A DNA stretch of 64,000 nt from Candidatus Hydrogenedentota bacterium (GTDB lineage: Bacteria > Hydrogenedentota > Hydrogenedentia > Hydrogenedentales > SLHB01), in NCBI GenBank assembly GCA_963745075.1, contig CAVUWV010000018.1:192001-256000 (forward strand), given 5' to 3'. The position numbers and the translations under genes were made by a program. Positions 3 to 4,774 of this stretch are shown piece after piece. Within the stretch, counting starts at the first letter, position 1. Each line of letters begins with the position of its first letter. Below the pieces are notes generated by a model. The model ran no database searches, was not told the DNA's origin, and was given only the letters and a program-made list of their open reading frames with translations.

Positions 3-1193
3 GATGCATCCGGTTACGTCTTGGCCGTCGCCAACAAGCTCCTGCAAAAAGCGCAGGAGGATTACCGGGCGGATATCGCATTCGCGGTTCAATCGGGCGA
101 AATCGACGCGGAGACGGCACAGGAACACCTCGATAGAGCAAGTGCTTCCGCTGTGGAGTTTTGGGACGATGGCGAACTCCAGATTTACGCCCCGCACTTA
201 ATCGATGACACCGGCGAAAATGCGCTGGCATGGGCCTTCAAAGTGAAAGACACGGTGGGGATTATGACTCCCGTGCAGGTATTCGTCGACGCAGATAGCG
301 AGGCGTTGCTTCACCTGCATCCCCTCGCTGCGGACGCCATCAACCGCCGATTGTACGACAACAAGCTGGACGGGGACGCCGGAATCCCTTACGCAGTACT
401 CCGTCGCACCGAGAACAGCGGACCGGTAACTATCTTCCAGACGATCCATTTCGCCGACTTCAACGCCCATTGGGATATTCTGGGTTACGTGTACGACTAC
501 TTTGAAGATAATCACGGATGGGATGCCATGGATGGAGTCGGCGGGCCGATATTCTCATACATGAGGTACGACACCATATTCGATGCTTTCTACAATTCGG
601 AAGATGGTTACATGTGGTTTGGGACGAATGGGTTCGCGGTGTCAGACAACGTCGTGGGTCATGAGTATACACATGGAGTTCTCCACGAATCGGCCGGCCT
701 CATTTATGATTGGGAATCGGGAGCGATCAACGAATCTTTGGCTGATATGTGGGGCGAGTTTATCGACTGGTCTTGCCCTGTGCTCGGGAACGACGGAGCA
801 AATAAGAGATGGAAGCTTGCAGAAACGACGGGCTCGGGAGTAATCCGAAACATGAAGAACCCACCCGCAAAAGGTCAGCCAGACACGTACCAAGGGACGA
901 ACTGGTATTTCCCATTTGATGACAACGACACATTCGTTCACACGAATAGCGGCGTTGGCAATAAGCTTGCCTACCTGCTCACCGATGGTGATACGTTCAA
1001 CGGGTACACAATCAGCGGTATGGGAGAAGGCGTTGTACGAGACCTCTATTGGGAGACTGTGCAACTAATGCCACAAAGCCTTGGGTATAACGATCTCTAT
1101 CAACTGTTGTTGGACGCAGCCGACAATCTCGGGTTCACTACAGCCCAGGTGGACAACGTTCAAAATGCTTGCGAGGCTGTCGAGATCGACTGA
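3..1193 (+). CDS. M4 family (thermolysin-like) zinc metallopeptidase, 5' partial
   Basis: HEYTH zinc motif, GAINESLAD third-ligand motif, VHTNSG motif; frame is open to the window edge. Confidence 0.93.
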   Translation, partial: DASGYVLAVANKLLQKAQEDYRADIAFAVQSGEIDAETAQEHLDRASASAVEFWDDGELQIYAPHLIDDTGENALAWAFKVKDTVGIMTPVQVFVDADSEALLHLHPLAADAINRRLYDNKLDGDAGIPYAVLRRTENSGPVTIFQTIHFADFNAHWDILGYVYDYFEDNHGWDAMDGVGGPIFSYMRYDTIFDAFYNSEDGYMWFGTNGFAVSDNVVGHEYTHGVLHESAGLIYDWESGAINESLADMWGEFIDWSCPVLGNDGANKRWKLAETTGSGVIRNMKNPPAKGQPDTYQGTNWYFPFDDNDTFVHTNSGVGNKLAYLLTDGDTFNGYTISGMGEGVVRDLYWETVQLMPQSLGYNDLYQLLLDAADNLGFTTAQVDNVQNACEAVEID

Positions 1194-1279
1194 TCTACGG
1201 GAATCATCCGCCTAAAATGCGTTTACAAGAAAGTGCACCTAGGTAATTCGTCCCCAACCAACCTAGCGGAGTAGTAGCT

Positions 1280-1459
1280 ATGCGAAGAAACAAGACTATG
1301 AACCACATCTTCTTAGTAACGTTTCCCAGACCTGCTGTGTCATTCTGGCAAGGAAACGCGCTCACGCATTTCAAGGAGTGCCATTCGCATCAGAACACGG
1401 TCAGCGGCAAGAAGGAGTGTTACCAAACGTACCAGGCGGAGAAATCCGAAAAGCAGTAA
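1280..1459 (+). CDS. Small peptide A (59 aa), two-Cys precursor-like family
   Basis: Manual translation MRRNKTMNHIFLVTFPRPAVSFWQGNALTHFKECHSHQNTVSGKKECYQTYQAEKSEKQ; GGAG upstream of ATG; paralogous to the next two ORFs. Confidence 0.75.
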   Translation: MRRNKTMNHIFLVTFPRPAVSFWQGNALTHFKECHSHQNTVSGKKECYQTYQAEKSEKQ

Positions 1460-1491
1460 CAGGGATTCGTGTAATAGGTGAGGTAGGAGTT

Positions 1492-1668
1492 ATGCGCAGA
1501 ATCAAGTCTATCAGCCGCACCCCGTTTGCGAGTTCAATTCCTGCGGCAGCATTTCGGCAGCCGCAACCATGGGAATACTTGTTAGGCTGTCTAGCCAATC
1601 CAATAGTGTGGGTAATTGGAATAAAGCGATGTTACCGTTACCAGCGTGATTTACCATTGCAATACTGA
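1492..1668 (+). CDS. Small peptide B (58 aa), two-Cys precursor-like family
   Basis: MRRIKSISRTPFASSIPAAAFRQPQPWEYLLGCLANPIVWVIGIKRCYRYQRDLPLQY; strong RBS GAGGTAGGAG immediately upstream of ATG 1492. Confidence 0.8.
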   Translation: MRRIKSISRTPFASSIPAAAFRQPQPWEYLLGCLANPIVWVIGIKRCYRYQRDLPLQY

Positions 1669-1754
1669 TAAGCGCAGGGATCCAAACTGTCGGCCGATCA
1701 ATCGTACGCCGTGCGACGGATGGGGGTGCGGACAAAACGGATGAGGTATCACTG

Positions 1755-1913
1755 ATGCGTCGAATCAAACGATTAAGCCGGGTTCCCTTCGTCGATCCAT
1801 CGCTCCCGGCACCAGCGATTCAAGCGGAAACCCCGAAGGAGCGGTACAAGACCTGTGAAGACGAACAAACGTCGTTGACTGGCAAGGCCGCCTGCTACCG
1901 CACGTTCGTATAG
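1755..1913 (+). CDS. Small peptide C (52 aa), two-Cys precursor-like family
   Basis: Manual translation MRRIKRLSRVPFVDPSLPAPAIQAETPKERYKTCEDEQTSLTGKAACYRTFV; RBS GAGGT; leader resembles B, core resembles A. Confidence 0.8.
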   Translation: MRRIKRLSRVPFVDPSLPAPAIQAETPKERYKTCEDEQTSLTGKAACYRTFV

Positions 1914-1966
1914 GAGAAAAGCTGGCGGAAAAGTAGCGCGACCTCGCATTGAGAATTCTGGGGTCC

Positions 1967-4591
1967 TCACGCGGTCAGTTCGCGGGTCTTGCGGACGATG
2001 TAGCTGGACAGGGCGCGGCGGAGCCAGGCGATGCGTCCTTCGGCCAGGGCGGTGCGCATTCGTGGTTCCAGCCGATCCGATCCGGGAACCAGTCTGTTTT
2101 CGTAACGCAGTATTTGGAAATTGGCGAATGCCTGCTTCGTTATCTCCGTGATGGACTGGACAACATCGGCGGGCGGCGTTGCAGTAAACGAGTCGATGGT
2201 CACTTCCGGCGGCATGGTAAAGGACCGGAGTTCGTACGGACCGAGCGTGATTCGCCAAGTCTGCGGCGCGTCGGTATTGGCGTTCGCGGCGAAATCGTGG
2301 ACGTTTCCCGGGGGATTTCCGAAGCGAATCTCGATGTCGACCGAATAGTATTCGCGATTGATTGCGTACAGGTAGCGTTGGTTCTCGTGCATCAAGGTGC
2401 GCACGGCCACGGGGTCGGACGTTGGGCCGACGGTATCGAACTTCTTCGCGGGCAAGGCACGGTACGCGAGGGCAAACCGCTGCAAGTCCGCCGTGTGGGC
2501 CTTATCGAGGAACAGACCGCCCCGGGTGATGCGGCAGGCGTCGAGTTCGGCGACCGCGTGGGCATAGGGCTCCATGAAATGCACGCCTACCGGGAACGGC
2601 GGCGTGATGCGGGACTGGGAATCCCACCAGAATCCGTCCGCCGGATACTCGGAATTGACGCGGAGAATGCCTTCGGCGGGTTTCCCGTCCATGACCGCCA
2701 GGGCCTCGGCGTTGGAATCGCCGGGTTCGGGACGGGACCACACATGTTTCCCCCACGCTTCCACCCAGCAATTGAAGATGAACGCGCCGGGACGCGGCAA
2801 CGCGCCGGCGGCATCGAGCGTGTCCTGGTCGAGGAAGTCGAAATCGCGGAACATGCAGCCCTCTTCGACAGGCCGGTTGGCGCCACCGGTGGGATGAGGC
2901 CCATGGCCGCCGCGGTCGCGGGAATTGCCCATCCCGAGATCGATTTCCAATCCTGGCTCGTCGTTGTACAGCGCCAAGTCGATGCCGGCTTCCCGGTACA
3001 AGTCTCGGTTGCTTTCGCGGGCGGAAATCTGGTGGCCGGCCGAGGTCTGGCCGAGCACGCCGGGGATGAAGGTCTCATCCCACAACGTGACCGTCACGCG
3101 GAGATCGGAACGTGACTCGGCCAAGGTCTGACGAATCAGGCCGAAGAATTCCCGGATCTTCTTGCAGCGCCACGCGATCCACGCCGGGCCGCACACGGTC
3201 GTGAGATAGTCGTAGCGGCGGGCGAACCGGTCGGGCGCCTTCGGGTCAACGGGCACGGCGATGCTGCTTTCCTTTTCGAACAGGCCGACCGTGTAGTCGT
3301 CGTATCCCACGCGAATCGAGCCGAACCACGGCATGGCCGATGCGAACATGTTGAACGAGATGCCTTTGAATGCGGAGAACTTTCCGTAGCGCCGGCCAAT
3401 CTCGCGCATGAATCGCAGGATGACGTCCTGCACGGTGGGATGAAGCGGATTGAACATGGGCTTCATGCCGCTGGACTGACCGGGGTTTTCACCGTAGGCA
3501 AAGTTCGGCAAAGCGCCGCCATAGGGTTCGATAAAGGGTTTGTCATTCAGAATTTCGGCGAGGGTGTTGAAATTGCGCACGTTGTACAGCGGCGTCCAGT
3601 CTCCAGTACTCCCCTGGACCTGGTTGTTCCAGAGCATGTTGTTGTACGTATCCGCGCCGGCCTTGATGGCCTCGATATCAGTATTCATGTTCTGCAACAG
3701 CGTGCCCAGGCGCATCAGGGTCAAGGCGCCCTGGAACTCCAGACCTTCCTTCGTGAAACGTTCGAGCAGGTCCGCATACCAGTCCGCGGGCTGGGTCGTC
3801 CAGCGCAGGTACACCTTGCGGTCGCGTGCGATCACCAGGTCCAACCCGCCGGAGGGTTCACGCTCGGACGGGAATTGCGGACCGTGATACCACGCCATGG
3901 GATAGACGAGCAGGCCTTGTCCGCTGTGCCGGGCGTAGGTGACGATGCGGTCGATCCACTCGGCGTGGCTCATTGCGCCTTCCGCCGCTCCGGTGCCGCA
4001 GGGGTCCTCGTACTGAATGCCCAACTCGCGCCGCCCCACGGATGGGCCGGTCACGGCGACGGGTGGCAAATCGTCTAACTCGTAGATCTCGATATTGGAC
4101 ACGGCGGCGGGTTCCCCCTCGCCCCAGGTCATGAAGACGATGCTGCAATCGTTCCAGCGCGGCCAGAAGACTTGCTGGATGTCGAGCATCTCACCGGAAA
4201 GCGGCTGCGCCCAATTGGTGAAGGCGCCGGTGGTGAGGTCGTAGCTCGTGCCATCCATCATGCACATGAACCGGCGCTTGTCATCGGGAAACCGGACGAG
4301 CGCGAGGTGCGGTTTGCCCGGGTTGTCGATGGGAAACCGGTACCCAAACCGGGCCATGGGATTCGGTTCGGTTTCGCGGTAGCGTCCCGCTGCGGTTTCA
4401 ACGACGTGGGTTTCACCGAAGGCGAAGAACGTGTCGGGCGAGTAGTCCTGGGTGCAGTCGATGGTGTGCAGCAGGCGTCTTCCCGTGGCATCCGGGGCAG
4501 CCGTCTCGCCACGCGCCGCAAACAACGAGATTCCAAGGCCCGCACCGGCGGCACCCACCAGAAACGCGCGCCGTGACAAGTCGCCAGCCAT
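1967..4591 (-). CDS. Large Tat-exported protein, probably glycoside-hydrolase-like
   Basis: SRRAFL twin-arginine signal after ATG 4591 with GGGGAG RBS; FNPLHPTVQ and VGYDDYTV segments resemble GH-like TIM barrels; family not assignable. Confidence 0.6.
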   Translation of the reverse strand: MAGDLSRRAFLVGAAGAGLGISLFAARGETAAPDATGRRLLHTIDCTQDYSPDTFFAFGETHVVETAAGRYRETEPNPMARFGYRFPIDNPGKPHLALVRFPDDKRRFMCMMDGTSYDLTTGAFTNWAQPLSGEMLDIQQVFWPRWNDCSIVFMTWGEGEPAAVSNIEIYELDDLPPVAVTGPSVGRRELGIQYEDPCGTGAAEGAMSHAEWIDRIVTYARHSGQGLLVYPMAWYHGPQFPSEREPSGGLDLVIARDRKVYLRWTTQPADWYADLLERFTKEGLEFQGALTLMRLGTLLQNMNTDIEAIKAGADTYNNMLWNNQVQGSTGDWTPLYNVRNFNTLAEILNDKPFIEPYGGALPNFAYGENPGQSSGMKPMFNPLHPTVQDVILRFMREIGRRYGKFSAFKGISFNMFASAMPWFGSIRVGYDDYTVGLFEKESSIAVPVDPKAPDRFARRYDYLTTVCGPAWIAWRCKKIREFFGLIRQTLAESRSDLRVTVTLWDETFIPGVLGQTSAGHQISARESNRDLYREAGIDLALYNDEPGLEIDLGMGNSRDRGGHGPHPTGGANRPVEEGCMFRDFDFLDQDTLDAAGALPRPGAFIFNCWVEAWGKHVWSRPEPGDSNAEALAVMDGKPAEGILRVNSEYPADGFWWDSQSRITPPFPVGVHFMEPYAHAVAELDACRITRGGLFLDKAHTADLQRFALAYRALPAKKFDTVGPTSDPVAVRTLMHENQRYLYAINREYYSVDIEIRFGNPPGNVHDFAANANTDAPQTWRITLGPYELRSFTMPPEVTIDSFTATPPADVVQSITEITKQAFANFQILRYENRLVPGSDRLEPRMRTALAEGRIAWLRRALSSYIVRKTRELTA

Positions 4592-4774
4592 ATCAGTCTC
4601 CCCCATCTGCGAATACGTCCCGTGATTTGCGGCTTTACTCAATCGAAGTAAGGTGCAGCATACGACTTCATTCACCGCGCGCACAACACGACATCGAACA
4701 TCGCCGGACCCGCGTTGACCGGCGTCCGTTTCGGCAAGTACACTATACGAGGGTCACTTCAAAGGAGATGCATC

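Follow-up and report, generated by a model that had tools for sequence, protein, structure and literature searches.

The window, by which we mean the whole stretch of DNA analysed here, comprises 64,000 nt of Candidatus Hydrogenedentota bacterium (GCA_963745075.1, contig CAVUWV010000018.1, positions 192,001-256,000 of the forward strand); the genome that holds it is designated G000, and other G numbers denote further genomes of the phylum. Close to its 5' end three genes for small peptides (A, B and C) follow a protease gene, and the region contains the following features, in window coordinates:

1-1193, + strand, 3' part of an M4 (thermolysin-family) preproprotease gene (Pfam Peptidase_M4, M4_C and FTP over cut-off)
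1268-1271, + strand, Shine-Dalgarno-like GGAG, 8 bases 5' of the start of A (sequence)
1280-1459, + strand, peptide A, 59 aa; leader 1280-1342, Cys codons 1379-1381 and 1418-1420 (ORF, family alignment)
1480-1489, + strand, Shine-Dalgarno-like GAGGT/AGGAG before B (sequence)
1492-1668, + strand, peptide B, 58 aa; leader 1492-1551, Cys codons 1588-1590 and 1630-1632 (ORF, family alignment)
1743-1747, + strand, Shine-Dalgarno-like GAGGT before C (sequence)
1755-1913, + strand, peptide C, 52 aa; leader 1755-1817, Cys codons 1854-1856 and 1893-1895 (ORF, family alignment)
1967-4684, - strand, convergent flanking gene, 905 aa, with a TAT-like signal and a weak GHL10-like match below cut-off (ORF, Pfam)

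The protease gene starts about 600 bases upstream of the window and codes for a protein of approximately 595 aa with a signal-like hydrophobic N-terminal stretch, an FTP propeptide and a catalytic domain; it is of the short type, that is, without a C-terminal extension. The features of M4 membership are all present, namely HExxH (660-674), the third zinc ligand (Glu of GAINE) and the catalytic His (of HTNSG), which align with a thermolysin-type neutral protease, and the FTP propeptide. From its stop at 1193 to the start of A there is a gap of 86 bases. The convergent gene at 1967-4684 marks the end of the module and lies outside it, since the neighbours differ at other arrays. The GC content of the array is 0.516, as compared with about 0.59 for the G000 genome, and a scan of window positions 1000-2100 for promoters and terminators returned 0 and 0. 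No modifying enzyme or transporter adjoins the array; this had been claimed in the first-pass annotation for the window and also holds for the genes upstream of the M4 gene, the frames of which were read.

That annotation had described three co-oriented ORFs of 59, 58 and 52 aa, each with its own ribosome-binding site and the second contained in a longer GTG-started ORF. All of this is borne out, the GTG ORF running from 1378 to 1668 and GGAG, GAGGT or AGGAG motifs preceding all three starts. The MRRxK starts, the leaders of 21, 20 and 21 residues ending in PAVS, PAAA and PAPA, and the position of the first Cys (13th residue after the junction) and of the second (within G-x3-C-Y-[QR]) were likewise confirmed. 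The distance between the two Cys, given as 12-13 residues, is correct as the number of residues in between; the second Cys sits 13, 14 and 13 positions on. We conclude that A, B and C are coding genes under purifying selection, which form an operon-like row downstream of the gene for a short secreted M4 protease.

The three peptides represent different subtypes. Peptide A has an A-type core, which is present in three other species and is 84% identical to the copy in G003 (pN 0.07 vs. pS 0.81); its leader is atypical, with an internal N-H-I motif from an ATG at 1298. Peptide B has a hydrophobic B-type core with a PWEY motif, also found on contig C9 of the same genome, in G003 and among metagenome proteins. 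The C-type core of peptide C ends at an in-frame TAG (1911-1913) and is 7 residues shorter than that of its C9 paralogue; this paralogue and the orthologues run approximately 7 residues past the TAG.

A profile built from A, B and C, as the first-pass annotation had recommended, was run against 142,608 frames of G000 and recovered five more copies, all on contig C9 (E 1e-13 to 1e-26; next match E 0.18). Further matches occurred in four of the five congeners (9, 12, 1 and 10, respectively), the fifth (81% complete) having none. In total, the two-Cys family has 40 matches in five of the six genomes of the genus, of which 38 were aligned; the other two are a copy truncated at the edge of a contig and one that lacks a start codon. 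The 38-row profile gave strong matches across 135 phylum genomes in this genus only, with three matches outside it at E of at least 0.002. Protein collections hold metagenome members of the same subtypes, unnamed or labelled 'hypothetical', and family members occur on metagenome contigs of 98, 44 and 34 kb. In a search with family representatives 19 of 20 matches were family members of 43-97 aa; the top match, P0001 (1181 aa), was dropped as a low-complexity repeat. The best Pfam match to family peptides has an E-value of at least 0.09 and NCBIfam gave none, with no Pfam or NCBIfam match over cut-off for any of the eight G000 peptides. Searches of open-access titles and abstracts returned no description of the family, although catalogue papers (e.g., PMC13219616) could list such loci in their supplements. 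A, B and C are genuine genes, and the two-Cys family to which they belong has no name and is restricted to a single genus of Hydrogenedentota. The earlier proposal of an undescribed family of processed, probably disulfide-stapled peptides stands as regards real paralogous genes without a Pfam or NCBIfam match, the disulfide itself being plausible.

The arrays are found at five different chromosomal sites with differing neighbours and, wherever the upstream DNA is assembled, always behind a short M4 gene or its remnant. The C9 array follows a second short M4 gene (68% identical), and an M4 3' remnant lies behind its third peptide gene. There is a full M4 gene with 12 peptides in G003, a full M4 gene with 8 in G005 and two M4 remnants with 9 in G002; two further arrays end at contig ends. 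M4 matches are present in 89 of the 135 genomes, with the short-M4 clade (>1200 bits) occurring at arrays only and the other matches in the phylum scoring at most 315 bits. G001 has neither the short M4 nor the peptides. The remnants inside arrays are:

L001:9381-9701, strand not given, M4 3' remnant (sequence comparison)
L024:5476-5772, strand not given, M4 3' remnant (sequence comparison)
L024:6839-7139, strand not given, M4 3' remnant (sequence comparison)

In one G002 remnant the gene start adjoins the 3' end, as after an internal deletion. The possibility that the 3' remnants form a conserved mini-gene was rejected as they do not group together. Since they are independent truncations, the duplicating unit is the protease plus the peptides; M4 and peptides duplicate and move together.

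Met1 and both Cys are invariant in all 38 aligned copies, and the Pro of PxxA is conserved in at least 90%. Counted from PxxA, the first Cys occupies residue 13 in 35 of 38 copies (15, 16 and 17 in the remaining three), and the Cys-Cys spacing is 13 in 34 copies and 14 in four. The offset of the first Cys thus hardly changes, while the Pro moves between positions 11 and 21, which means that PxxA, rather than the start, sets the register of the core. The first-pass annotation had seen a conserved leader with a variable core, which is true among paralogues only. The dN/dS comparison which it had suggested revealed coding-type purifying selection, with the leader changing faster than the core across species: dN/dS was 0.405 for the leader and 0.148 for the core across 15 reciprocal pairs from different species (core identity 60% or more), values to be read with the partial saturation of synonymous sites and with a choice of pairs by core identity that favours a low core value. 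The cores are subtypes common to several species, several with starred support, and one C-type core carries different leaders in different species. Since the cores are conserved across species and the leaders swapped, we regard the family as a conserved product set with exchangeable leaders and not as a hypervariable library.

The structure prediction called for at the outset was also undertaken. In the AlphaFold model of peptide C the first 26 residues are unstructured and helices are predicted at 27-37 and 41-51 (pLDDT 83-91 over the core); the predicted family fold is a helix-loop-helix (27-37 and 41-51/57) with one Cys on each helix. A fold search of 48,161 chains gave a best Z of 3.7, a tie among generic or unrelated hairpins; Foldseek returned no match at E <=0.001 and the ESM Atlas no usable match. 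Histone-fold chains of NF-YB, which appeared in a PDB sequence search (E 0.12-0.55), were taken as chance matches. The 13-residue spacing of the two Cys presumably resembles that of the inner disulfide of plant alpha-hairpinins. These are described as helix-loop-helix peptides too, a likeness that rests here on a predicted fold with the tied best Z, but they are eukaryotic and possess four Cys in two CX3C motifs, against the two invariant Cys of the present family (PMC11591084, PMC7191063).

How might such peptides leave the cell? With a 9-residue hydropathy window none of the 38 leaders reaches 1.8, as against the signal-like 2.1-2.5 of the four short M4 proteins, and the hydrophobic signal peptide of the Sec type, as in EntV and PapR, is thus absent from the leaders. 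Nor do they resemble those of double-glycine bacteriocins: they end in PxxA, and the sole C39 match is a partial one in a 257-aa frame on another contig. We found instead that approximately 20 small ORFs scattered over G000 begin with M-K-H-[IVL] and continue, further on, with P-A-x-A. A model of this tag was built from 15 of the scattered peptides, no array members being included, and placed seven of the eight array peptides at ranks 20-119 of 216,404 small ORFs; C ranked 20, B 40 and A 44,869. Among the 38 family leaders 28 fall in the top 0.1% of the background and 10, A included, outside it, although the test is not fully independent because the training peptides were chosen with patterns informed by the array leader. 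B and C fit the pattern M-x-[HR]-[IVL]-x-x-[IVL]-[ST]...P-A-x-A, whereas the first residues of A do not. An internal N-H motif is common to the four A-like leaders, three of which show a weak tag fit beginning at residue 7 (a post hoc observation). As compared with the scattered peptides and those heading the cassette described below, most array leaders show Arg at the His3 position, and their spacer is longer. Judged by its sequence, the array leader is probably a variant of the genome-wide M-K-H-I-K...PAxA tag. The initial remark that no named leader family was recognised is incomplete, in that the leader matches a tag which is tied to a remote processing and export cassette.

A leader-only profile run over the 135 genomes gave mostly noise outside the genus and was convincing at one of 29 inspected loci. 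At this locus, L030 (G110:C228), three tagged peptides with Cys-bearing, unrelated cores lie in a row, with no protease within the 3 kb fetched. A metagenome scan for H-type peptides returned nothing.

The cassette in question is located on another contig of G000:

G000:C20:133684-140571, strand not given, tagged-peptide/export cassette (profile matches)

It comprises two tagged peptides, three GNATs, an Rce1-like (CAAX) protease, an ABC ATPase, a weakly matching ABC-2 permease (below cut-off) and a CteB-like protein. The last, which we refer to as the scaffold, aligns at its N-terminus to CteB (PDB 5WGG), lacks CxxxCxxC and scores 77.7 bits against a cut-off of 425 for the TIGR03974-type family. 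It is present in 123 of 135 phylum genomes, including all six of the genus, and tagged peptides head the cassette in all three other genomes for which upstream DNA was fetched. A complex prediction for the cassette N-terminal domain with peptide C gave a score of 0.02 (mark 0.32). We take the scattered tag to resemble the start of SCIFF precursors. The SCIFF/ranthipeptide system CteA-CteB (PDB 5WGG; TIGR03973/TIGR03974) is similar in that the scaffold is a CteB homologue with an N-terminal leader-binding region, but differs in its six-Cys precursors, as opposed to two Cys here, and in that the scaffold has no radical-SAM Cys motif and misses the family cut-off by a wide margin. G000 has no match over cut-off to the six-Cys precursor TIGR03973. 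With two Cys, no such match and no radical-SAM Cys motif, thioether formation is not expected. No confirmation of a role for His3 in CteA binding was obtained from PMC8172795.

The association of tagged peptides with short M4 proteases extends beyond the genus. Outside it we examined 36 of 113 M4 matches, shortest frames first, and dropped seven with less than 1 kb downstream, which left seven short (C-terminal extension of up to 142 residues) and 22 long proteases. Canonical tagged peptides lie downstream of three of the seven short ones and of none of the 22 long ones, one of the latter having a match that is not leader-like; one further short M4 has a weak, distant tag match downstream. These loci, from genomes of three other families (f3, f10 and f7, respectively), are L112 (G071:C18), L113 (G043:C132) and L123 (G030:C99), with seven, five and one peptides, the cores of which are unrelated to the window peptides and to each other. 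By way of background, 9 of 2643 long frames in G000 have a tagged-peptide neighbour. Fisher's test for short versus long gives p = 0.007-0.03, depending on the counting rule, which overstates the independence because the split was post hoc, 36 of 113 matches were examined and a topology that unites all peptide-linked M4s could not be rejected (p-AU 0.37). Metagenome scans added three other M4 loci, and a genome-contig scan one long M4, all without peptides. The G071 peptides are Cys-rich and internally duplicated, and are followed by a 362-aa frame that, by eye, resembles an M4 propeptide without the catalytic domain.

The reading we prefer, tentatively and at slightly less than even confidence, is that the peptides are helical hairpins exported by the cassette and trimmed or turned over by the co-encoded M4 protease. 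A, B and C would be ribosomal precursors of secreted mini-proteins, with a basic, non-hydrophobic variant of the tag as the leader, which the C20 cassette would read in trans. The RRE domain of the catalytically dead CteB-like protein would bind the tag, the CAAX/Rce1-type membrane protease would cut at or near PAxA, the GNATs could possibly acylate the product and the ABC-2 transporter would export it. That the leader is a variant of a phylum tag, recognized, cleaved and exported through this cassette, appears quite likely from the matches described. The released core of 31-40 residues would form a helix-loop-helix closed by one Cys-Cys bond made outside the cell, which we hold to be fairly probable; against it, DsbA, Thioredoxin_4, VKOR and DsbB were not detected in the 90%-complete G000.

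Finally, the M4 protease, itself exported by a Sec-type route, would trim the peptides to their active form or turn them over, for which the chances seem about even by analogy with GelE/EntV and NprB/PapR. Enterocin O16 (EntV) of Enterococcus faecalis is reported to require GelE cleavage and a disulfide for activity, and so offers the likeness of a secreted one-disulfide peptide made active by an M4 protease, an action which here would be analogous; it differs in being specified by one gene as a Sec-exported 136-residue propeptide oxidised by DsbA (PMC6606811), as compared with arrays of 3-12 paralogues with a tag-type leader, no Sec signal and no DsbA found. In the Bacillus cereus group NprB, encoded near papR, processes PapR (PMC10017872, citing Pomerantsev 2009). 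There, too, as described, a neutral metalloprotease gene is linked to a small peptide gene, the product is matured extracellularly, and in some strains the protease gene is a remnant while the peptide stays; PapR, however, is one Cys-free signal that is exported by Sec and has a regulator encoded next to it (PMC10017872), whereas no regulator adjoins the window array. Two-step leader removal also has a precedent (PMC10885120). The most likely products are secreted signals or antagonists that form a multi-component set.

In a broader and more speculative form, which we judge somewhat unlikely, the phylum would possess a general tag-directed secretion pathway with plug-in accessory enzymes at distant loci. 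The M4-plus-array module would be one of these. In it, a secreted protease whose cleft changes fast would interact with a shuffled library of helical hairpins, each closed by a disulfide, by activation or as protease-versus-inhibitor immunity, and the module would have been rebuilt with unrelated cores in at least four families.

The cores might, on the other hand, inhibit or tune the M4 protease, as an expanding library which shields the envelope from the cell's own or its neighbours' proteases in the manner of emfourin. Their tight co-location and co-duplication with the protease would agree with this, and so would the pattern of variation in the latter: among the four short M4s the segments lining the cleft are 33-38% identical and the scaffold 81-82%, the reverse of the long paralogues (cleft 59-73%, scaffold 58-60%). 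Positive selection in the short-M4 cleft is unsupported, however, since pN is below pS in the variable segments, which counts against inhibition; between G003 and G005 pS rises from 5' to 3' in short and long M4 genes alike. An M4 gene with a co-transcribed inhibitor is known from the protealysin-emfourin operon of Serratia proteamaculans, where the M4 gene is likewise followed by a co-oriented small gene, but that system is described as having one inhibitor and an intracellular protease (PMC9505478). The present peptides have no sequence match to a known inhibitor family in Pfam or NCBIfam (best PDB E 0.12). In G002, where both copies of the short M4 are remnants, eight of the nine peptides are intact and a long M4 is kept, which is in keeping with inhibition. 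The protease already has its own propeptide, though, and the unrelated cores in G071, G043 and G030 fit varied substrates of a broad protease better than the repeated invention of an inhibitor. We regard this reading as unlikely, but as the strongest of the alternatives.

Also rather unlikely is that protease and peptides are parts of a co-regulated secreted arsenal without mutual action, the cassette alone maturing the peptides. G002 speaks for it, since intact peptides beside M4 remnants show that, in recent times at least, their retention has not depended on the short protease; the peptide duplicates of this genome have pN 0.124 vs. pS 0.349, over a span that overlaps the time of a still-conserved protease. 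The tagged peptides at many protease-free sites, and the five different sites and lower GC of the arrays, like those of cargo islands, are in keeping with it as well. The pairing with short M4s in four families is, however, more specific than co-regulation alone requires.

A further alternative makes the M4 protease the leader peptidase, whole precursors being exported and cut at PxxA before a hydrophobic residue. Thermolysin prefers hydrophobic residues at P1', and in 30 of the 38 copies, which are related and not independent, PxxA is followed by F, V, I, L, Y or M. In the M4-linked arrays of G071, G043 and G030, by contrast, the residue at this place is hydrophobic in only one of 12 peptides with a readable motif (by eye), and the cassette has a membrane protease of its own, which makes this quite improbable. 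Least probable are uncleaved cytoplasmic mini-proteins, binding, for example, metal or acting in redox through the Cys pair, with an ancestral or incidental likeness to the tag: the want of a hydrophobic signal and of a detected disulfide catalyst and the deviating A-type leaders would suit them, but the N-terminal part is predicted to be unstructured, varies in length, evolves faster and is swapped between cores, and most copies match the tag strongly.

The array would represent a variant of leader-directed peptide secretion, and what is new here is the link of the family leader to the tag and cassette, together with the recurrence of M4-plus-array loci with other cores. Should the preferred reading, with cassette export and M4 action, be true, an unannotated peptide family would be tied to a near-universal, unstudied processing and export cassette of an uncultured phylum, with a secreted M4 plus peptide array as a recurring accessory module. 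Standard RiPP mining overlooks such a module, as its precursor, machinery and protease occupy separate loci. With cores of a length accessible to synthesis and a protease that is a tractable relative of thermolysin, the question of substrate versus inhibitor can be answered directly. Either outcome would be new, be it helical-hairpin peptides of bacteria matured by an M4 protease or a novel class of inhibitors of such proteases.

Several other tagged peptides of G000 deserve mention. At G000:C10:373502-374559 (L081:3502-4559) a 51-aa peptide with repeated TTxxxxEE (tag-model rank 21) precedes a gene resembling ATP-grasp peptide maturases (TIGR04187, E 8.5e-16, below cut-off); from its sequence this pair may be graspetide-like and share the export tag. 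On C17 (G000:C17:124428-125250; L077) a sigma factor/anti-sigma-like gene pair is followed by three unannotated tagged peptides, and further pairs of unannotated tagged peptides were found in G000 at C36:103583-103998 and C24:235451-236973. Upstream of the window, G000:C18:183532-189785 holds, as judged by reading the frames, a bacterial microcompartment-like cluster with shell proteins, an aldehyde dehydrogenase and a class II aldolase, in which a CAAX-protease gene (187489-188284) is seemingly split across two frames.
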